From IMG/VR virus record IMGVR_UViG_3300025913_000026, positions 1 through 64,000 of that record: a stretch of 64,000 bases of DNA. The stretch is one strand, 5' to 3'. Both the position numbers and the translations under genes were made by a program. Origin of the DNA: a virus. Each line of letters starts with the position of its first letter. The stretch's first letter is position 1. This document shows positions 839 to 12,635 of this stretch, piece after piece. The notes under the pieces were generated by a model. It had not been told where the DNA came from and did not search any database. It saw only the letters and a list, made by a program, of their open reading frames with translations.

Positions 839-1732
839 TTATTTATTCAATACCTGATACTTTTCGTGGAATTGATTCAACCAATCCCGGCCAAATTTTA
901 CCCTATCATACAGCTTTTGTTTCTCAAACTCCGTGAACGGCTCTACTTTGATCTTATGCACACGTTTATTTGGTGGAATGTGATCGAACCTCATTGATCG
1001 TTCCCATTTAGGCCATTCTTTTAGCATTTCAGGAGATTCTGGAGTGGTAGCACCGATCTTTTTAGTCACACGCCATCTCATTTCCTCTATAATGTGCTCT
1101 GGATTGCTGATTAAAGTGTTGGCAATATATCCTTCCCCGGCTCCGGTAATGTCACAGTATCCTTGGACCTGCTCTTTCTGACCATTTTCCAGCCCTGTAT
1201 TGATCTTCTTTAGAAACGTAGGATAATCCCATGAATTTTTTATGTCAGTTATATTGGTTGCAGCATAAACATGCTCCCCCAGGTAAATATCTATCTCTCC
1301 ACTCAGATAATCGTTATAAATCCTTTCTTTGTGGATTTGGTATGGTTGCTTATCAACTCTCATTAGAAGCGTTACAGCCTCATTTTCGCCTTCTCTGCCC
1401 TTCTGAATAGCCAATAACTCCATAGATTCCTTGTTTACGGCTATCATGCCTTCGGTTATCCAGGCATATTCAGCCATTAGATATGCTATATAGGTATCTG
1501 AGAGGACTACTTTCTTGCTATTTTCTTCCTTTACTTGTAATTCGGCTAATTCAGCCTGCTGTTTTTCGGTTATTTTGCCTTTTTCTTGCAGCTTATCGTT
1601 CAATTCCTTTATCCTAGCTTCCTGATTCTCTGTTAGAATAGGATTTGACCGGCTATTTGATAAGGCAGCTACAATCTGGGAACACCTAACCTTGAAACTA
1701 TCGAAGCTTATCACTTTATCGACCATCTTCAC
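839..1732 (-). CDS. YqaJ/lambda-exonuclease-like PD-(D/E)xK nuclease
   Basis: Motifs RCSQI, KGREGENEA, SGEIDI, DIKNSWD, QVQGY. Confidence 0.75.
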   Translation of the reverse strand: MKMVDKVISFDSFKVRCSQIVAALSNSRSNPILTENQEARIKELNDKLQEKGKITEKQQAELAELQVKEENSKKVVLSDTYIAYLMAEYAWITEGMIAVNKESMELLAIQKGREGENEAVTLLMRVDKQPYQIHKERIYNDYLSGEIDIYLGEHVYAATNITDIKNSWDYPTFLKKINTGLENGQKEQVQGYCDITGAGEGYIANTLISNPEHIIEEMRWRVTKKIGATTPESPEMLKEWPKWERSMRFDHIPPNKRVHKIKVEPFTEFEKQKLYDRVKFGRDWLNQFHEKYQVLNK

Positions 1733-2060
1733 CCTCCTTTTCTTCAGAAATGTACATTGGGTATATGTCTGGCATTACACCATGAGTAAGCAAGTTGTTA
1801 AGGACATTATCTAGCGCTTTGAATTGATCGTCAAACTCATCTGTGCCTATTTGTACCGTTTGCCACATTAATATTTCAGATGTTTCTCCTTGTCGGTATA
1901 CTCTAAACTCGTAAAACGAGGAACTAGTATAGCTCATGTCTACTTCATAGATAGTATATTTTTCAGAGGCTATAATAGATTTCCGTATTAATGATAAAAG
2001 CTGATCCATCTGTCGGTTATACCGAATCTTATCCAATAATCTTCTGTTGTGATTGCTCAT
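1716..2060 (-). CDS. hypothetical protein
   Basis: ORF tiles the leftward operon with short overlaps. Confidence 0.6.
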   Translation of the reverse strand: MSNHNRRLLDKIRYNRQMDQLLSLIRKSIIASEKYTIYEVDMSYTSSSFYEFRVYRQGETSEILMWQTVQIGTDEFDDQFKALDNVLNNLLTHGVMPDIYPMYISEEKEGEDGR

Positions 2061-2124: not shown

Positions 2125-2391
2125 TTACCAAGGATTTGAATTATTATGTCTATTTAAATAAAGCGCCCAGACTTCTTCGTCCGTTTTGGATCCCCATTCA
2201 GGGATTTCACTTTTATACCATAGTCCATCTTGGTGATAGAGATAGTTTTCATTGACCCATTTAGCGAAATGAAGAGAAGTTTGTCGCGCATAATCAACCA
2301 TGCAATCAAAAACCAACGGCTCAGTAATGTGGTCATTTGAGAAGTATTTTGGCGTTAAATACCACTTATTTAATATTTCCTGCATGTCCAT
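2125..2391 (-). CDS. hypothetical protein
   Basis: 88-aa ORF with AT-rich leader, in operon. Confidence 0.6.
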   Translation of the reverse strand: MDMQEILNKWYLTPKYFSNDHITEPLVFDCMVDYARQTSLHFAKWVNENYLYHQDGLWYKSEIPEWGSKTDEEVWALYLNRHNNSNPW

Positions 2392-2659: not shown

Positions 2660-2992
2660 TTATTCTGATTGTTTTTTAGGTTTTGCTTTAAATTTCGCTC
2701 TACATCTATCACAATATGCGGTTTTACTACCTGATCTTGATTGTTTTATACTGCCACCACATGAACAATGCCTATCCTTCAATAATTCAGCCATTTGAGC
2801 GTTAATGGATTTGTTTTTATGTTCTCTAATCGCGGCCTTTTCTTCTACTGTTGGTGGGCACAAGATCATCATCAAGCGCTTGTATTCCTTTGCAATCCAC
2901 GGCTCCTCATGATGCAAACCATCTCCCATCATTTCCCCCAGCCGGATGAATTGTCTCCATAAATGTTCGTTTCCAGGCTCTTTATTTATCAT
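2660..2992 (-). CDS. zinc-ribbon protein
   Basis: CSCGG...YCDRC at the C-terminus. Confidence 0.65.
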   Translation of the reverse strand: MINKEPGNEHLWRQFIRLGEMMGDGLHHEEPWIAKEYKRLMMILCPPTVEEKAAIREHKNKSINAQMAELLKDRHCSCGGSIKQSRSGSKTAYCDRCRAKFKAKPKKQSE

Positions 2993-3283
2993 TTCTCCAA
3001 GGGTATTTTAGTTTCCAGCACCAAAGTATTTTGTAGCGGCCTTTTGAATGTTTATCCTGCATTACCGGAAAGGTTGTAGTGGAATATTGCCGCTGATAAA
3101 CGTTATCCCAGTATACATAAAGTAGTCTGCGCCTGCGTCCCATTCTTTAACACATTGAATCTATTTTGTCCTGTTTTTGGTTTTCTTCATCAGTTCTTGC
3201 AATTGATAACATGGCCCGTAATATTCCTTCAAATGCTTTGGCCGGGCTCGTTTATCGCCTAAGATTGTTTCTTTAGTCATTTG

Positions 3284-3701: not shown

Positions 3702-3959
3702 TTAGTATTGTTCTCTTACTTGAATTACAGGTAGTTGTTCGTCTGGGTTTAGAAGATTGGGATAACCATAATTTGCATTAGTAACAGGAGGATGAATAAT
3801 TCCTGAACGAGCAGCAAATGACTGTACTTTAGACATGGCTTCTTCTAATTTATCAATTGGGCTATGGATTGTATCTTCAAAGGGGAGTTCAATTCCCACC
3901 CAGCGCTTTAGACCTGTCATGGTCATAAACTCTTCGCTATATTTTACTGTTCCTTGCAT
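3702..3959 (-). CDS. hypothetical protein
   Basis: ORF in operon. Confidence 0.6.
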   Translation of the reverse strand: MQGTVKYSEEFMTMTGLKRWVGIELPFEDTIHSPIDKLEEAMSKVQSFAARSGIIHPPVTNANYGYPNLLNPDEQLPVIQVREQY

Positions 3960-3967
3960 ATAATTAT

Positions 3968-4201
3968 TTATTGTATTTTTAAGTACCCGTTTTCTTCAGC
4001 CCATTTTTTGAGATCTTTTTCAGTAAATACATCTTCTGGATTGAAATTACCTTGAAGATGACCTATTAAATCTTCATCATCAATTTCGGTTAAAAGCTCA
4101 TCTATATCTGGCGAATCCACTATCAATTTCATTTTTCTATATCCATCCGGCTTTGAAGTAATTTCTTCACAAGTAAATGATATCTCTTTTGTTTTTGCCA
4201 T
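3968..4201 (-). CDS. hypothetical acidic protein
   Basis: ORF in operon; PEDVFTEKDLKKWAEENGY C-terminus. Confidence 0.6.
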   Translation of the reverse strand: MAKTKEISFTCEEITSKPDGYRKMKLIVDSPDIDELLTEIDDEDLIGHLQGNFNPEDVFTEKDLKKWAEENGYLKIQ

Positions 4202-4572: not shown

Positions 4573-4929
4573 TTATTGGTTATTAATTTCTTCTGGCGTA
4601 TCCAGTACTTGCCTGATTGCACTTATTATTTGTTCCAATCCTTCATCCTGTATTTCCCAGCACATTAAATTAAGATCAGCAAGCAGTACTGTTTCGTTTT
4701 TAAGAAAGCTGCGTTTGAATGCCTTACGATGTTCTTCGGTTGTGTTATTGTGGTTTATGAAATACAATTCTACATTTTTAACTGCGTTCAGCACACACTT
4801 CACACGGTATTTAAGATTTTGCTTGGTATCATCAACTATTAACCTAGCACCGTAATCGGCCAGCATACAACCTAATACCATTAATTTAATTGCATCTACT
4901 GTTTCTGGGTTGTTATATACTGTTTTCAT
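4573..4929 (-). CDS. hypothetical protein (start MKTVYNN)
   Basis: ATG at 4929, downstream of the terminator hairpin. Confidence 0.6.
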   Translation of the reverse strand: MKTVYNNPETVDAIKLMVLGCMLADYGARLIVDDTKQNLKYRVKCVLNAVKNVELYFINHNNTTEEHRKAFKRSFLKNETVLLADLNLMCWEIQDEGLEQIISAIRQVLDTPEEINNQ

Positions 4930-4948
4930 TTGTGGGAGTTTAAAAGAA

Positions 4949-4970
4949 GGGGCCAGTAGAAATTGGCCCC
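4949..4970 (-). terminator. intrinsic terminator after the tRNA/ncRNA cluster
   Basis: ggggccagt-agaa-attggcccc hairpin followed by TTCTTTT on the minus strand. Confidence 0.6.
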
Positions 4971-5008
4971 GTATTATCAAATACCATTAACCATTAAACC
5001 TTATCCTG

Positions 5009-5081
5009 TAGCTACACCGGGATTTGAACCCGGACTGTACAGATTTTAAGTCTGTTGACTCTACCGTTGGTCTATGTAGCT
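5009..5081 (-). tRNA. tRNA-Leu(UAA), 73 nt, short variable loop, no encoded CCA
   Basis: Acceptor AGCTACA/TGTAGCT; D-loop with GG; anticodon arm ACAGA-CT-TAA-AA-TCTGT; T-arm CCGGG-TTCAAAT-CCCGG; discriminator A. Confidence 0.9.
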
Positions 5082-5414: not shown

Positions 5415-5511
5415 TTTATTGGTTACACCACTATTAAACCGCCATCCTTAGCTGGTCGAATGTTAGACAATAATTCCGTTAGGAATCCCGCGGCTTTTAG
5501 CAACCAATAAA
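5415..5511 (-). ncRNA. putative structured ncRNA
   Basis: TTTATTGGTT/AACCAATAAA closing stem, then GCTA/TAGT and AAGCCGC/GCGGTTT, with two internal hairpins. Confidence 0.5.
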
Positions 5512-5516
5512 TAAAA

Positions 5517-5528
5517 TTCAAAGAACTT
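5517..5528 (-). promoter_or_regulatory. boxA-like antitermination site
   Basis: AAGTTCTTTGAA on the minus strand, directly 5' of the RNA cluster; resembles rRNA-leader boxA. Confidence 0.5.
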
Positions 5529-5604
5529 AGCTATGATCTGATTACTAGTTTCAGATAGCACCCTTTTTTGCAACACTAATCCTAGATGTAGGTGGCATAG
5601 CTAA

Positions 5605-5799
5605 TTATTTAGTTTTTTCTTTAAGTCCCAGTTTATCTTTTACGCTTTTAGGCAGCTTACTAATCTTTAGAGCAATAGCCTCTTCAACGAAACGCTGAAT
5701 TGGGCATCCAGTAATTGCCTTAATATTCCTAACTATATCTAATACTCCGTTATCTATTCTCACAGGAGATGTTTCCATTATTTCATCGCTTCCTTTCAT
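5605..5799 (-). CDS. small RHH-like DNA-binding protein
   Basis: TSPVRIDNGVLDIVRNIKAITGCPIQRFVEEAI; first gene after a promoter. Confidence 0.6.
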   Translation of the reverse strand: MKGSDEIMETSPVRIDNGVLDIVRNIKAITGCPIQRFVEEAIALKISKLPKSVKDKLGLKEKTK

Positions 5800-7864: not shown

Positions 7865-8134
7865 ATGAAACAATATACCACTTCAGACTATTCTAATCCT
7901 GTTGTTGCTTTTTATGCGGCATGGGAAACACAGCCATATACCGAGGTAGAAACTAAACACAATGGTTGTTATGCGCTATGCACCATTGAGGGCGTCCAGT
8001 ATATGGATAGCGAGTTATACGGCCATCTCAATAGTGTCGATAATACCGCTGCTGTACGCCTCATTATTGAGGATAAATACACATTTGGGAGCCCGGAAAG
8101 CTGTTTATCTTATACGCGCCATGCACGTGACTAA
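7865..8134 (+). CDS. early hypothetical protein
   Basis: First ORF after the promoter; A-rich leader. Confidence 0.6.
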   Translation: MKQYTTSDYSNPVVAFYAAWETQPYTEVETKHNGCYALCTIEGVQYMDSELYGHLNSVDNTAAVRLIIEDKYTFGSPESCLSYTRHARD

Positions 8135-8226
8135 TAACCCTATTCAATAACACCACTAAAACAAATTAATATGTCGCACACACTCAATGTTAAATCCGAA
8201 ACTATAACACATTAATACATCTAGTC

Positions 8227-8568
8227 ATGAACTACTCATATAAACAATTCGATCAGGATTACATGCAGGCTGTTAATTATGATAGCCGCACCTATTACAA
8301 CCCTCCTATTACTATCGATGTGGATGGTGTTAAGTATATCCTGTCTTGTGGTACCTCAGATCATTTAACCACCATTGAAGATGGCAGTTATTTGCGTATT
8401 ATCGGCGAAAACTTCAACCTTGATTATATGTCATTGACTGTAATCAATACCACTACTAAAGAAATAGATTCATGTTACGTTGACAATATAGAAAGTGAAT
8501 ACCCTGGTATTTTCAAGATAGAGACAGATCAGCAATTAGCAATTCTATCACAACATTTAGCATTTTAA
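8227..8568 (+). CDS. early hypothetical protein
   Basis: 113-aa ORF in the rightward block. Confidence 0.65.
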   Translation: MNYSYKQFDQDYMQAVNYDSRTYYNPPITIDVDGVKYILSCGTSDHLTTIEDGSYLRIIGENFNLDYMSLTVINTTTKEIDSCYVDNIESEYPGIFKIETDQQLAILSQHLAF

Positions 8569-8694
8569 ATCAAACAATATTCAAAGCTCTAAAACTTAAC
8601 ACATGAAAAAACAAGATGAAACCGCTTATCCAGTTCCTGCTGAAAACGGCAGCTTCCCAAATGGCTGGAATATTAAACCTAAAAATAATTAATC

Positions 8695-8976
8695 ATGAAA
8701 ACAGAAATCCATATAACTGGTCAGATTAGTGGTAATATCCGCCTGCGTAATGCAATTATAACAGCAGTTTGCGAAGAACGGCGTGGCATGTTTAACTCTT
8801 ATATACTCACATTTAAGAGCAATAAAGCGGCTGTAAAGGCGCTATCTGAAGGCTATCAGTACATGAGTCGTGAAGAGCCTAGAATAACTAACCGCATTGG
8901 TGGAATCAATTATTCCCGTGGTCACGCGCTAAATTATGACGCATCTAGGGCAGTAATACAAGACAATAACTCATAA
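8695..8976 (+). CDS. early hypothetical protein
   Basis: 93-aa ORF in the rightward block. Confidence 0.65.
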   Translation: MKTEIHITGQISGNIRLRNAIITAVCEERRGMFNSYILTFKSNKAAVKALSEGYQYMSREEPRITNRIGGINYSRGHALNYDASRAVIQDNNS

Positions 8977-9194
8977 ATCCTTTTTATGCATAAAATTGTT
9001 TTTGAAAACGGACAAACAGTAGACAGTTATTACACTGATTATATTACCCTTATTACTTGGGAACAAATGTTTAACAGCAGGATAGCCACAATTGATGGTT
9101 TTTCTGTCCATCATTAACTAATTATCAGGACGGCGCACAAATGGCTGAACTCTAGCAACCAATAGATATTAGGCCATTTATTTAAATATTCCAT

Positions 9195-9491
9195 ATGTTA
9201 GTATCTGTACATAAATATCTCAATAGATTACCCACTTACCCAAATTTTGGAGATGTGAATAAATCTAGCTTCTCATTAGTGCGAATGGTGAATATTTCTG
9301 ATTTATGGCCAAATCAGAGGGAAGTAGATACGGACGTGATTGATATTAAAGTTAAAAACAAAAATCTTTCCCCTATATATGTTATTCAGACAGATGGCAA
9401 ACAATTTATTGTCGATGGCCACCATACTGTAATAGCTAAAAAATTACAAGGCAAAAAACGAATTAAAGTTAATTTTCTTCATCTTTCATAA
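9195..9491 (+). CDS. ParB/Sulfiredoxin-like domain protein
   Basis: VNISDLWPNQ..PIYV..FIVDGHH..AKKLQG motif order. Confidence 0.7.
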   Translation: MLVSVHKYLNRLPTYPNFGDVNKSSFSLVRMVNISDLWPNQREVDTDVIDIKVKNKNLSPIYVIQTDGKQFIVDGHHTVIAKKLQGKKRIKVNFLHLS

Positions 9492-9510
9492 CTTACTAAA
9501 ACTTAATATT

Positions 9511-9789
9511 ATGAATATCCCTACAATCCCAAACTTTCACATCTTAATAGTTAAAGCTATGGGCGCAACTGATAATAAACCTGCCCGCGTTAAAATCATT
9601 AGCGAACGTTTTAAACAGTCTATTACGCTCCCCTATACTAACCATACCGGCGCAAGTAATCCGGCTATTGATACCGCTTTATTATTTATTACCAATAAAG
9701 GATGGAATATAATCGGCAAAGGAGAAGGTAAAGACCATATGTATTTAATAACCGATACTTTCAATGATACTTTTGAACCTTTAAAATAA
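9511..9789 (+). CDS. early hypothetical protein
   Basis: 92-aa ORF (GATDNKPARVKI). Confidence 0.65.
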   Translation: MNIPTIPNFHILIVKAMGATDNKPARVKIISERFKQSITLPYTNHTGASNPAIDTALLFITNKGWNIIGKGEGKDHMYLITDTFNDTFEPLK

Positions 9790-9795
9790 CTATAT

Positions 9796-10017
9796 ATGTT
9801 GACACTACAAGAATATCTTACTCAACAGGAGCCGGTGTACATGCCAATGGTTAATCTTATACCAGCTGAATATACCATCGAACATGAACAACTACGCCAA
9901 ATTGTTCATATACACCATTATCCTGATTATCGTTATATGAAAAAAGGGAAATCAAATAAACTATATGCTATTAAGCCAGATGGCGATTGTGAGAGTGAAA
10001 GTTGTTTCTGGATATAA
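9796..10017 (+). CDS. early hypothetical protein
   Basis: 73-aa ORF. Confidence 0.6.
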   Translation: MLTLQEYLTQQEPVYMPMVNLIPAEYTIEHEQLRQIVHIHHYPDYRYMKKGKSNKLYAIKPDGDCESESCFWI

Positions 10018-10089
10018 AGTTTGTTTGTGTTGTCAATCAGGCCGAAACCCATGCACAACACTAGGGGAGTAGGCCATTAATTAAATCAC

Positions 10090-10247
10090 TATCATTTAAA
10101 TGGGGAGGTGGGCTTAAAAGTAGCCATCCTTTAAAGAGTTATCCGCTTCCACAATAGGAATAACTTACCGAGTAAAAGCGGATAAGTAGGTGAACGGTGG
10201 AGATTCAGCGGGATATTTGGTGTAACAACACACCCTATTAAATGATA
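10090..10247 (+). ncRNA. 23S rRNA L11-binding (GTPase-associated centre, H43/H44) mimic RNA
   Basis: GGAGGTGGGCTTAAAAGTAGCCATCCTTTAAAGAGT...GTGTAACAACACAC aligns with 23S nt ~1055-1104; enclosed by a 10-bp stem TATCATTTAA/TTAAATGATA. Confidence 0.8.
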
Positions 10248-10281
10248 TTAAATCTATTAACCTGTATTTAAATTATATATT

Positions 10282-10425
10282 ATGTATGTATATATTCAAT
10301 CAGAGCCCAATTTATGGACTGTAGGGCATTACGCCCCTAGTGGCATATGGATGCCCGAAAGCGACTGGAGCAGTAAGGAAGACGCCGCAAAGCGAGTAAA
10401 TTACCTAAATGGAAGTAAGCAATAA
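10282..10425 (+). CDS. 47-aa small phage protein (absent from ORF track)
   Basis: MYVYIQSEPNLWTVGHYAPSGIWMPESDWSSKEDAAKRVNYLNGSKQ*; resembles a small phage protein pattern I recall. Confidence 0.7.
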   Translation: MYVYIQSEPNLWTVGHYAPSGIWMPESDWSSKEDAAKRVNYLNGSKQ

Positions 10426-10515
10426 TATTATGGGAAGGGCAAGCCCGTTTGCCGGTTAACGGTGTCATGGAAGTATTTAACCGGCTTTATTTTTAAAACT
10501 TTTAATATTTATTAT

Positions 10516-10743
10516 ATGCGTAAAATAGCTGTATTAACTACCATTGTAGGCATTTGTTTTTTCTTATTATCCATTATTGCTGGATTATTATGGCTTTCCT
10601 TTAATTCATTCCCATCCAAAATGCCTAACTGGGCAAACATTTGCTTTATTGGTTCATTCCTGGTTATGATTATCGGCCTTTTAATGTGGCTCTATACAGA
10701 GAAGGATTATATTGTTTCTGAGATTAAAAAACTTTACAACTAA
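10516..10743 (+). CDS. two-TM membrane protein (start MRKIAV)
   Basis: Two hydrophobic segments. Confidence 0.65.
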   Translation: MRKIAVLTTIVGICFFLLSIIAGLLWLSFNSFPSKMPNWANICFIGSFLVMIIGLLMWLYTEKDYIVSEIKKLYN

Positions 10744-10749
10744 TATTAT

Positions 10750-10988
10750 ATGCAAACATTAGAACAAGCGGCTATTGATTATGCCCCATCATATGAAAAT
10801 ATGCTACCCAAAGATACTCGTCTGACTACATTTATGCGAGAATCTTTTAAAGCTGGTGCAGAATGGCAGAAAGAACAATATAAAGAAGTAATTCACCTTA
10901 TGAGCGCCTTAATAGGAGCCTTGCAGGCCACACAAATTCCGCAGTTATAACAAAAATTACGATGGATCTTAAACGTCTCCAAGACTGA
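10750..10988 (+). CDS. hypothetical protein, possible frameshift near the 3' end
   Basis: SFKAGAEWQKEQ motif; one extra A at 10934-10936 would extend the ORF from 10950 to 10988. Confidence 0.55.
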
Positions 10989-11203
10989 GAGCCCAAATTA
11001 TTAAAACCAAAACATATGCAACAGATAGACCTCACAGATGTACTAAATGCTCGAACCAGTGGCAGGCATTCAAATTTATTGAAGTGGGAACATTTTACAT
11101 GGTTTTACCGCGCAACTAATTTACGCGATGAACTAATTAGATATACTGGGCCATCCAATTGGATAGCCGATCTTTTAAACTAAAAAGGGTTAAACTATAT
11201 TTT

Positions 11204-11494
11204 ATGGGGAAACATCTGGATTTATACAATAAATACATGTCAGAAGGCGAAAAAATACCATACCTCTCTGGGCATTATAATGGAGGTCTTTGTGGAGTTG
11301 CGTACAACTCAGATTTAATCGACAAAATACTTCTATCAGTTTTTGAGCCAACAATTGATAATGCAATAGAATTTAATATTTCAAGAACTGGATTCTGGGG
11401 ATACGATTCTTACGGAATTGAATATGCTACAAAATTCACAGAATTGCGTCAAAATATAGTCTTATTCATGGCAGCTATGAACAATGAATTATAA
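11204..11494 (+). CDS. hypothetical protein (start MGKHLD)
   Basis: C-terminal FTELRQNIVLFMAAMNNEL. Confidence 0.6.
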   Translation: MGKHLDLYNKYMSEGEKIPYLSGHYNGGLCGVAYNSDLIDKILLSVFEPTIDNAIEFNISRTGFWGYDSYGIEYATKFTELRQNIVLFMAAMNNEL

Positions 11495-11515
11495 ACTCTT
11501 AAATTTTAAACAAAC

Positions 11516-12217
11516 ATGAAACAGTTATTTGCAACCCTAATGATTACTATTTCTTTAATGGCCTGTAAAAAGGATAATTCCTCAGTACAGCCTGAACATG
11601 AAAAAAGCACCTACCGGGTTTACCTATTGGGAGCTGCTGGAGATACAACACAATTGCCTGATATGATGGCCCGGGTAGCCACTGTGGGCCTTGATTCTGC
11701 CAAAGACGACAAATTGCGTGTAATACTCACCTCCTATCAAAACATTGGCGGATTGGGTTATTATGCGCTCTCGGTAACTAATCTACAAAGTTGCCAAATG
11801 TTATTGCGCTGGAATTGGGACGGGGATCTATTGCCTACTAGCATCCAGCCGACAGATACCACTGCTAATACTTCTCAAAGCGATGTATTAAAATCATTCC
11901 AGACTAAAACCTATGTGGTTATTGGTAATCCCAAGCCAGGAAGAATAAAAGTGCAGGCGCAAAAAATAAATAGTGATTGCCCTAACTCTAGCACATTGAT
12001 TATTAACATAACACCCTCCATTTTACCAATTAAAGTAGTACAGCATAGTGCTAACTATGATAAAACAACTAACAAAACTACTATCGCCTTCACTGTTACT
12101 GACCCCAGCTCCTTTGATTGGATTTTAATTGACAGATACAAAGGCAATAATGAATGGGAGCAAGCAGCTTTAATTGGGTCAGATCATGAAACTAAAAACT
12201 ATTCAATAAAACTATAA
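11516..12217 (+). CDS. lipoprotein
   Basis: Signal peptide II MKQLFATLMITISLMA-C-KKD; beta-rich body. Confidence 0.75.
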   Translation: MKQLFATLMITISLMACKKDNSSVQPEHEKSTYRVYLLGAAGDTTQLPDMMARVATVGLDSAKDDKLRVILTSYQNIGGLGYYALSVTNLQSCQMLLRWNWDGDLLPTSIQPTDTTANTSQSDVLKSFQTKTYVVIGNPKPGRIKVQAQKINSDCPNSSTLIINITPSILPIKVVQHSANYDKTTNKTTIAFTVTDPSSFDWILIDRYKGNNEWEQAALIGSDHETKNYSIKL

Positions 12218-12221
12218 CATC

Positions 12222-12431
12222 ATGGCCACTTCGGATAAAATAAAGTATTTAACGGCTAGGAATGTGGAAGTTTTAGAATTTCCATTAAACAGCCAAAATA
12301 TAATTCTCCCTAATGGCGTAGAATTAGCTTTACGGTTTGATCCAATTCGACAAGGATTAACTATCACAAAGTTAACAGAGGGCGAATTATTCATCCAACC
12401 TCATGTAAGTAATCAAATATTAATAAAATAA
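12222..12431 (+). CDS. hypothetical protein
   Basis: ORF in operon. Confidence 0.6.
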   Translation: MATSDKIKYLTARNVEVLEFPLNSQNIILPNGVELALRFDPIRQGLTITKLTEGELFIQPHVSNQILIK

Positions 12432-12434
12432 TCA

Positions 12435-12635
12435 ATGAAACAACAAACCCCACACCGCGCACACCGTACAAACATTCACGGCCTGTTTTTAATCCTATTC
12501 GCTTTAATGGCTCTTATTTATGCTTATGGTTGTAGCCCTCAAAGATCCGGCTGCTATGGAACTAGGGGCATGTCAGGATATAGTAGCGTGAACCATCTTA
12601 AGACTGAGAGTAAAATTATCAAATACGCAAAATAG
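12435..12635 (+). CDS. small membrane protein or lipoprotein
   Basis: Hydrophobic stretch followed by YAYG-C-SPQ. Confidence 0.55.
   Translation: MKQQTPHRAHRTNIHGLFLILFALMALIYAYGCSPQRSGCYGTRGMSGYSSVNHLKTESKIIKYAK

Follow-up and report, generated by a model that had tools for sequence, protein, structure and literature searches.

The GTPase-associated centre (GAC) of bacterial 23S rRNA, composed of the top of helix H42 together with H43 and H44 (E. coli nucleotides 1051–1108), is a 58-nt domain that binds ribosomal protein uL11 and thiostrepton. According to work by Draper and colleagues, the isolated 58-nt domain reportedly folds by itself and is a tight in vitro binder of L11 and thiostrepton; the isosteric exchange of the base triple 1072.(1092–1099) from C.(C–G) to U.(U–A) is said to preserve its fold. 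Thiopeptides bind the isolated domain tightly, and uL11 is required for the activation of RelA. The leaders of ribosomal-protein genes mimic rRNA sites, and in Y RNAs a stem that binds Ro60 is joined to a further module. As for GOLLD and ROOL, found in phages and prophages, we know of no report of either copying an rRNA domain. In the Y RNA YrlA, one module mimics tRNA (PMC4201824).

Here we describe a non-coding element of 158 nt, located at positions 10090–10247 (plus strand) of an 85-kb soil phage, which contains a near-exact copy of the GAC. The window referred to throughout is the analysed stretch of 64,000 nt, corresponding to positions 1 to 64,000 of IMG/VR record IMGVR_UViG_3300025913_000026. 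Full-text literature searches, including one on Ro60/TROVE systems, returned no description of a phage family of GAC-copy RNAs, and we found no described virus-borne RNA family that is encoded in trans and reproduces a functional rRNA domain almost exactly.

A copy of the GTPase-associated centre in a soil phage

The element lies in the intergenic gap 10018–10281, between an ORF of 73 aa (9796–10017) and one of 47 aa (10282–10425), both on the plus strand and neither matching any family. No ORF of at least 30 aa overlaps 10090–10247 on either strand. The two ends, 10090–10099 (TATCATTTAA) and 10238–10247 (TTAAATGATA), are exact reverse complements of each other in the sequence read. They form the perfect 10-bp closing stem of the original prediction, which is additionally supported by covariation in the RNA family described below and which replaces H42. 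Positions 10100–10103 hold one side of a 2×2 internal loop (A and U facing U and A), followed by G10102 and G10103. The latter pair with C10235 and C10234, respectively; these two pairs are equivalent to 1053–1054/1105–1106 and were imposed as constraints in the folds. On the opposite side, 10234–10247 comprise the CC that pairs with G10103 and G10102, the U and A of the internal loop, and the 3′ strand of the closing helix.

Within this frame, the 5′ half of the GAC copy (10104–10139; 23S nucleotides 1055–1090) contains the H43 hairpin (10106–10130, with its loop at 10115–10121) and the 1082–1086 turn (10131–10135), whereas the 3′ half (10220–10233; 1091–1104) corresponds to the top of H44 with the loop GUAACA. 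The halves are separated by an inserted domain between 1090 and 1091, an irregular hairpin (10140–10215) obtained in both MFE and constrained folds, and by a UUUG linker (10216–10219) preceding G1091. The H43 pairs 1057–1059/1079–1081 and 1062–1065/1073–1076 are present with a 7-nt loop, as are the H44 pairs 1087–1102, 1090–1101, 1091–1100 and 1092–1099 with the G1093–A1098 loop closure. The MFE of the whole element is −46.4 kcal/mol, compared with −32.7 ± 3.9 kcal/mol for shuffled sequences (z = −3.5).

Positions 10104–10139 align without gaps to positions 1096–1131 of the Rfam LSU_rRNA_bacteria model (15.7 bits, E = 0.013 in a search of 601 nt; the gathering score is 50). In E. coli numbering, 10104 corresponds to nucleotide 1055, as in the original prediction. 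When a full-length 23S gene (L284, 2408.7 bits) was used as the reference, 47 of the 50 positions of 1055–1104 turned out to be identical (34 of 36 in the 5′ half and 13 of 14 in the 3′ half), with differences at 1061, 1068 and 1101. The only gap in this alignment, of about 80 nt, falls between 1090 and 1091. The gapless correspondence of the two halves to 1055–1090 and 1091–1104, and the insertion of about 80 nt at 1090 (80 nt at 10140–10219), are therefore as had been proposed. The same holds for individual nucleotides. U1060, A1067, A1088 and A1095, claimed to be retained, are found at 10109, 10116, 10137 and 10224, respectively. The three positions claimed to have changed jointly have U (1072, position 10121), U (1092, 10221) and A (1099, 10228) in place of C, C and G of the Rfam bacterial consensus, so that the triple 1072.(1092–1099) is in the U.(U–A) form. 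A1101 (10230) pairs with U1090 (10139).

A search of the whole 84,697-bp virus record returned no LSU match, and the phage has no rRNA gene. Between 9900 and 10500, Rfam searches at E ≤ 10 returned nothing else except for a chance match to psRNA6. Both results agree with the earlier statement that no other rRNA sequence flanks the element. No Rfam 15 family reached its gathering threshold in the element, and the whole window gave a single tRNA at this level; as had been expected, the partial LSU match is all that Rfam recognizes here. Likewise, in 11 other loci of the family described next, the elements are free of overlap with any Rfam family.

A family of related RNAs on viral contigs

Relatives were collected by three pattern scans of IMG/VR contigs, based on the H43 loop (any nucleotide being allowed at 1072), on the 3′ half of the C–G type and on the 3′ half of the U–A type, each of which gave at least about 120 loci. 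At least 129 non-redundant relatives on viral contigs were identified. All have the same architecture: a closing helix of arbitrary sequence, a 36-nt 5′ half, an insert, and a 14-nt 3′ half with A1101. The window copy conforms to it in the 10-bp closing helix with two further pairs flanking 1055/1104, in the helix 10140–10146/10208–10215 of the insert, in UUUG at 10216–10219 and in A10230. When 100 loci outside the seed were searched with a covariance model (R1), built from 23 members including the window copy, 37 additional matches were obtained at E ≤ 0.01. Two or three copies are present in some phages. The element belongs to an extensive family of phage RNAs with a horizontally scattered distribution; blastn against the 'phages' collection retrieved no relatives of it.

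Covariation and the tertiary base triple

In an alignment of 41 relatives, 85.8% of the cells are paired in the specified structure, versus 65.6% in shuffled alignments. The covariation score (0.548) is far above both the shuffles (0.165; none of 500 reached 0.548) and the slid controls, in which partners were displaced by 1–3 columns (0.09–0.18). In the family alignment, all 13 pairs of the closing helix change on both sides, and the sequence of this helix is not conserved across the family. The H43 pairs are 99.3% paired, with four of the seven changing on both sides, and H44 covaries too. The helix closing the insert likewise covaries in its first four pairs (columns 53–56/244–247 of the 41 relatives, 93% paired). 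Among individual pairs, 1058–1080 occurs as UA (37), GC (27), AU (14) and CG (3), 1082–1086 as UA (49), CG (24) and AU (6), and 1092–1099, in the first member set, as CG (79) and UA (4).

The triple 1072.(1092–1099) was counted among the 129 members as C.(C–G) in 93, U.(U–A) in 33 (including the window copy), C.(U–A) in one and U.(C–G) in none (Fisher p about 1e−29, uncorrected for phylogeny, as are all the statistics given here). All nine members with U1072 that were found via the H43 loop have U–A, and 31 of the 32 members selected by the U–A 3′ half alone have U1072. When members are compared by core distance, those with U.(U–A) are interspersed among those with C.(C–G); one of them (L036) is a single change away from L047 and at least nine changes away from other U.(U–A) members. 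This interspersion suggests that the triple has switched several times between the C.(C–G) and U.(U–A) forms. The U.(U–A) triple is also native to the archaeal and CPR 23S genes recovered in a genome scan for the U1072 variant. The family is, to our knowledge, the best-populated natural test of this triple.

Nine nucleotides of the GAC copy that build its fold, U1060, A1077, A1084, A1085, A1088, G1089, G1093, A1098 and A1103, are invariant in the family (for example, U1060 in 113 of 113 and A1088 in 84 of 84 members), and so is A1101. In samples that leave the respective positions free, A1067 is kept by 94 of 113 members and A1095 by 27 of 29, while 1096–1097 vary.

These observations bear on the possibility that the element is a captured rRNA fragment with no function. 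In its favour, the 5′ half differs by as few as two to five mismatches from genuine 23S contigs of the same habitats. On the other hand, relatives numbering 129 show compensatory changes that extend to the tertiary triple, the insert always sits at the same place, ahead of a conserved UUUG linker, A1101 is invariant, and the whole is enclosed by a phage-specific helix. We therefore regard such a fragment as extremely unlikely, in agreement with the original prediction, in which the fold was held to be under selection and decay of an rRNA fragment was rejected. As the covariation of both helices and triple shows, selection on secondary and tertiary structure maintains an autonomously closed, high-fidelity copy of the GAC.

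Genomic context of the family and of the window copy

We analyzed the neighbourhood of 94 members. A tRNA gene is located within 100 nt of the core in 47 of them, in practice abutting the closing helix, and within 500 nt in 58; in 24 members the fetched locus has no tRNA gene. In all of these 58 members, the tRNA gene is on the strand of the element, which fixes the functional strand of the family RNA. This arrangement suggests that the RNAs are co-transcribed and processed together with tRNAs. Among the protein clusters encoded within 4 kb of family elements, none is recurrent, the maximum being four of the 94 loci. Adjacency to tRNA genes, combined with the lack of a recurrent protein gene, speaks for a stable RNA that stands alone rather than for a leader. 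One family element (L011) lies 110 nt downstream of a match to GOLLD.

For the window copy, the nearest and only tRNA gene, Leu-UAA (5008–5081), is 5 kb away and on the opposite strand. This copy has no neighbouring tRNA genes and with them lacks the processing route suggested for other members. It resides in a plus-strand block of small ORFs that match no family, and no relatives were found for a neighbouring protein of 233 aa. No promoter-like or terminator-like sites were seen flanking the element on the plus strand, a result of little weight, as the host may use promoters of another type.

The original prediction had raised the possibility that the element senses uL11 in cis, as a leader controlling the 47-aa gene at 10282–10425. 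The location seems suitable, since this ORF starts 34 nt downstream of the element and is read in the same direction, and imitation of an rRNA site is what ribosomal-protein leaders do. Most other evidence is at odds with this idea: half of the family members abut tRNA genes, no gene family recurs downstream of them, and in the window a gap of 34 nt separates the closed helix from the start codon, so that the helix does not overlap the start region. Besides, the 47-aa ORF cannot be assigned to any family, and ribosomal-protein genes are absent from the phage. A cis-acting leader is therefore very improbable.

The phage and the distribution of this copy

The phage record (84,697 bp) has inverted terminal repeats and is estimated to be 100% complete. 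Its genes include those for a portal protein and a large terminase, along with others of tailed phages. Genes for uL11, RelA/SpoT or TROVE proteins were not found in the phage, nor was any ribosomal-protein gene; the sole match to PF00298, inside the portal gene, is below threshold (12.7 bits). Since the phage has no partner gene, a partner of the RNA would have to be a host protein. The element is single-copy in the phage genome (103.4 bits with model R1, a value which, with the window copy in the seed, shows only that there is no second copy). Model R1 detected no copies in nine phages related by the large terminase (49–88% identity; three of them at least 92% complete). A weak match in one genome (G005; 14.3 bits, E = 0.034) was treated as noise. 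The block surrounding the element is not conserved in relatives either, the closest complete one sharing only the ORF of 92 aa at 9511–9789. Taken together, the single copy, its absence from nine related phages and the unconserved surroundings identify the element as a sporadically distributed accessory cassette in a hypervariable region.

DNA of this phage occurs in rhizosphere and soil metagenomes. In DNA contigs from other soil and rhizosphere runs, the stretches 9929–10102 and 10171–10326 are present without differences, so that phage DNA runs uninterrupted into each arm of the closing helix and into the 3′ part of the insert. With flanks joined to the arms of the element in independent samples, an assembly chimera is unlikely. 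An element with a near-identical core and a different insert (L243) was found on a contig of 4.7 kb from the bin of a Flavobacteriales MAG. The contig and the phage have no proteins in common, and we do not deduce a host for the phage from it.

Free-standing copies in cyanobacteria

The genome-wide scan for the U1072 variant returned archaeal and CPR 23S genes, phage-type elements (two, on MAG contigs) and cyanobacterial loci. The last of these belong to a set of 79 loci, nearly all cyanobacterial, which have a free-standing GAC copy with no insert. In these loci, the sarcin-ricin-loop motif AGUACGAGAGGA, exact or with at most one mismatch, is found upstream of the H43 loop, at a distance of 69–78 nt in most of them (outliers, 34 and 140 nt), and the combined GAC and sarcin-ricin copy is part of a conserved RNA of about 230 nt. 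The gene order on the same strand is a 477-aa protein, sometimes a Schlafen AlbA_2 protein, the RNA, a 277-aa protein and a ThiF/E1-like protein. The 477-aa protein carries a vWA domain at its C terminus and, over its full length, weakly matches TROVE-domain (Ro60-like) proteins of solved structure, and the 277-aa protein matches no known family. Chen et al. could find few tRNA-like Y RNAs near cyanobacterial Ro60 genes (PMC4201824).

The cyanobacterial locus has the appearance of a cellular system centred on an RNA that replicates the factor-binding site of the ribosome. Its existence adds weight to the idea that replicas of this kind serve as functional tools. The association, in one operon, with Ro60-like, Schlafen-like and E1-like proteins hints at a cellular use and offers a genetically tractable entry point.

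The insert

In the window copy, the insert is closed by UAUCCGC (10140–10146) pairing with GCGGGAUA (10208–10215), followed by UUCCAC with GUGGAG, and contains an inner hairpin at 10164–10187. For the segment TTATCCGCTT, the original prediction had proposed two pairings, one with 10176–10185 and a partial one with 10207–10215. Both exist and, with the GAC pairs enforced, have similar energies (−33.4 vs −37.2 kcal/mol), so this part of the proposal stands. They are not equally compatible with the family, the architecture of which matches the partial pairing and not the 10-bp one. The latter (10139–10148/10176–10185) would unpair U1090, and no comparative support for it was found in the family. 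A switch between the two pairings is a possibility.

Family inserts range from 27 to about 390 nt, start with a helix of their own and end with a nearly invariant (Y)UUUG linker. In alignment A1 the linker corresponds to T129–T131 and G132, and its last three nucleotides (UUG) are present in 25 to 29 of 29 members anchored at the 5′ side. A recurring sub-motif, such as GGCACCCCGUAACUGGUAAGGC, is shared by the inserts of several members, and two larger relatives (L090 and L158) have sarcin-ricin-like hairpins. No sarcin-ricin motif was detected in the window with up to one mismatch, and this copy is consequently GAC-only. The replica would thus consist of the uL11-binding centre alone, as in the window, or of this centre joined to a sarcin-ricin loop, as in the larger relatives.

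The variety of inserts brings to mind a division of labour in which the GAC copy is a handle that recruits a GAC binder such as uL11, the activity itself residing in the variable insert. Such a tether would resemble Y RNAs. Recurring sub-motifs within inserts of such different length and the sarcin-ricin-like hairpins of L090 and L158 are consistent with it, as is the Ro60-like TROVE and vWA gene next to the cyanobacterial RNA that combines GAC and sarcin-ricin copies. This idea has to be reconciled with members whose inserts are as short as 27–29 nt (L102 and L128), and with a phage that lacks a TROVE gene. Moreover, the window insert resembles no other: no matches across its core-insert junction were found in metagenome contigs, and tblastx detected no similarity between the window and the loci of other U.(U–A) members. 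On balance, we find a role of the GAC copy as a mere handle improbable.

Possible modes of action

Our main reading, to which we assign a probability of about 0.5, is that the element is a trans-acting imitation of the GAC which competes for uL11 or for proteins docking on the uL11 arm. The 10-bp terminal helix would close an autonomous GAC copy (H43, H44; nucleotides 1055–1104), from which the 80-nt hairpin domain would protrude on the 5′ strand of H44, between 1090 and 1091. The RNA would accumulate during infection and act in trans, away from the ribosome. There it would offer a surface recognized by host uL11 and, once together with uL11, a surface recognized by the proteins that dock on the uL11 arm, and in this way it would compete with the ribosomal site for uL11 and for its docking ligands. 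Considering that the isolated domain binds by itself and that RelA activation needs uL11, competition is the most economical mechanism; a link of the phage RNA to RelA and the stringent response is speculation. It should be noted that a pure uL11 decoy leaves the conserved presence of a variable insert unexplained and that a decoy working stoichiometrically would be up against thousands of ribosomes. In addition, A1067 and 1096–1097 are probably more conserved in real rRNA than in the family, and the ligand may therefore not read the loops exactly as translation factors do.

Alternatively, the same competition could serve protection, with the RNA soaking up an agent that attacks the GAC so that translation of phage genes continues. 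Candidate agents could be an abortive-infection or competitor toxin, such as an ADP-ribosyltransferase or a nuclease acting on H43/H44, or a soil thiopeptide. A1095 and A1067 are dispensable for the GAC fold, and their retention at the frequencies given above would fit a bait of this kind, as would the addition of a sarcin-ricin-like hairpin in the two larger relatives, the sporadic distribution of the cassette, which is frequent among anti-defence genes, and the origin of the phage from soil and rhizosphere samples. Toxins directed at exactly this site do exist: Tre23 ADP-ribosylates H44 of 23S rRNA at 1095–1098 and thereby blocks the GTPase of EF-G, while VapC toxins cut the sarcin-ricin loop (PMC8661411). 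Nevertheless, 1096–1097, within the target of Tre23, vary freely in the family, and abundant ribosomes must be outcompeted unless the toxin prefers free RNA. Furthermore, we know of no such defence toxin for the host of this phage. For these reasons, protection of the GAC by the element seems to us rather unlikely.

Returning to competition for uL11 and its ligands, it can be placed in a broader picture, which we put forward tentatively and with reservations. Phages, and a chromosomal system of cyanobacteria, might use free RNA replicas of the factor-docking surface as weapons or shields in a contest over translation. The window RNA might then draw away from the ribosome either the uL11 of the host or an effector directed at the GAC, such as a toxin, RelA or a translational GTPase, and so reprogram or protect translation during infection.

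If this picture is true, the family would represent a new class of RNA decoys, mimicking rRNA instead of tRNA or DNA. Binding of uL11 or of factors directed at this site would give phages a new route to manipulate or protect the translation apparatus, with stringent-response signalling, recruitment of GTPases, and toxins or thiopeptides acting at the GAC as possible targets. The family also provides a compact natural scaffold for studies of the uL11 arm and a large natural mutational data set on tertiary structure.

Comparison with known systems

Like GOLLD (RF02032) and ROOL, the family RNAs are encoded by phages or prophages, stand alone, and are frequently located in tRNA clusters. They differ from these RNAs in that no sequence or Rfam model match links the two to family elements. 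With the YrlA Y RNAs, which associate with Ro60/Rsr, the phage RNAs share a modular non-coding design, a terminal closing helix and a module mimicking an RNA of translation, and the cyanobacterial relative of the GAC copy adjoins a Ro60-like gene. In contrast to Y RNAs, the closing helix of the phage family has no conserved sequence for a Ro60 site, the phage has no TROVE gene, and the mimicked molecule is rRNA, not tRNA.

The autoregulatory leaders of L10, L1 and L20 are similar in that a non-ribosomal RNA imitates the rRNA site of a ribosomal protein. However, these leaders are loose mimics which act in cis, upstream of the ribosomal-protein operon that they regulate, whereas the phage element is a near-exact copy with no ribosomal-protein gene nearby and its family is found mostly among tRNA genes. 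The closest counterpart is the GAC of 23S rRNA itself. The phage element has the same H43/H44 pairs, keeps A1067 and A1095, and shares the tertiary determinants, namely, U1060–A1088, 1082–1086, G1093–A1098 and the triple 1072.(1092–1099). Unlike the ribosomal domain, it is located outside any rRNA gene, has H42 replaced by an arbitrary Watson–Crick helix, contains an 80-nt domain with the UUUG linker between 1090 and 1091, and has A at 1101, which gives a U1090–A1101 pair.

Triple variants, inserts and surroundings of the phage elements

The U.(U-A) form of the base triple 1072.(1092-1099) in phage copies of the GTPase-associated centre (GAC) is a natural isosteric state, because U1072 together with U1092-A1099 is native to genuine 23S genes in CPR bacteria and in archaea, DPANN among them (L222, L245, the full-length gene L284 and other archaeal/CPR loci). 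Among the matches listed, only L450 mixes the two forms of the triple, combining C1072 with U1092-A1099.

Recurrent motifs are shared by the 3′ parts of the inserts at L011, L020, L022, L023, L141, L171, L192 and L202, and also by L029, L070 and L113. In a subset of inserts GGCACCCCGKAAMYGGUAAGGC is found directly 5′ of the linker; the insert of the window has merely a loose counterpart of this motif, at 10188-10202. Other inserts have in common the motif pair GUGCGAAAUG and AGU(AU)GAUGUGC, which is similar to a loop-E or kink-turn element.

The block of small plus-strand ORFs around the window element differs almost completely in the closest complete relative phage: when positions 7865-12635 are compared with its locus L215 (G004:789-4061), ORF 9511-9789 is the only one common to both, at 75% amino acid identity. 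The stretch that separates the element from the upstream ORF contains a 7-bp inverted repeat with a 21-nt loop (10027-10033/10055-10061, GTGTTGT/ACAACAC). Some phages encode two or three family copies spaced within a few kb (L393, L417, L409 and L395), those on L393 being located at 2697-2897, 3884-4052 and 4757-5058.

A cyanobacterial RNA combining GAC and sarcin-ricin motifs

Free-standing GAC copies of the U.(U-A) type, devoid of an insert, were observed at 79 loci among the matches listed from genome contigs (L216-L335). Their carriers are nearly all cyanobacteria (Nostoc, Calothrix, Tolypothrix, Moorena, Microcoleus and others), joined by one Acidobacteriota MAG. At these loci the copy is accompanied by the sarcin-ricin-loop motif AGUACGAGAGGA, either perfect or with a single mismatch, which is positioned upstream of the H43 loop, mostly by 69-78 nt (outliers, 34 and 140 nt). 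Both lie within a conserved RNA of ~230 nt (e.g. L257, ~5500-5770 (-), and L217, ~2800-3030 (-)), which is outside any 23S gene and corresponds to no family in Rfam.

Several genes neighbour this RNA on the same strand, namely, those for a 277-aa protein without known family (52 of the 79 loci), a ThiF/E1-like protein (39/79), a putative Ro60-like TROVE+vWA protein (also 39/79), its likeness resting on a weak full-length match to solved TROVE-domain proteins, and, in some loci, a Schlafen AlbA_2 protein.

tRNA genes and other non-coding RNAs near GAC copies

At L011, a GOLLD match (RF02032, 184.6 bits; 1582-2047 (+)) with an embedded tRNA is followed ~110 nt downstream on the same strand by the GAC-copy element (2160-2275 (+)). 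The MAG contig L317, which carries several tRNA genes in addition to a phage-type U.(U-A) element, has a Pistol ribozyme match (64 bits) at 1325-1397 (+). The copy of the cyanobacterium Lusitaniella coriacea (L253, 7131-7840) is embedded in an array of ~40 tRNA genes, a setting reminiscent of the context of the phage members.
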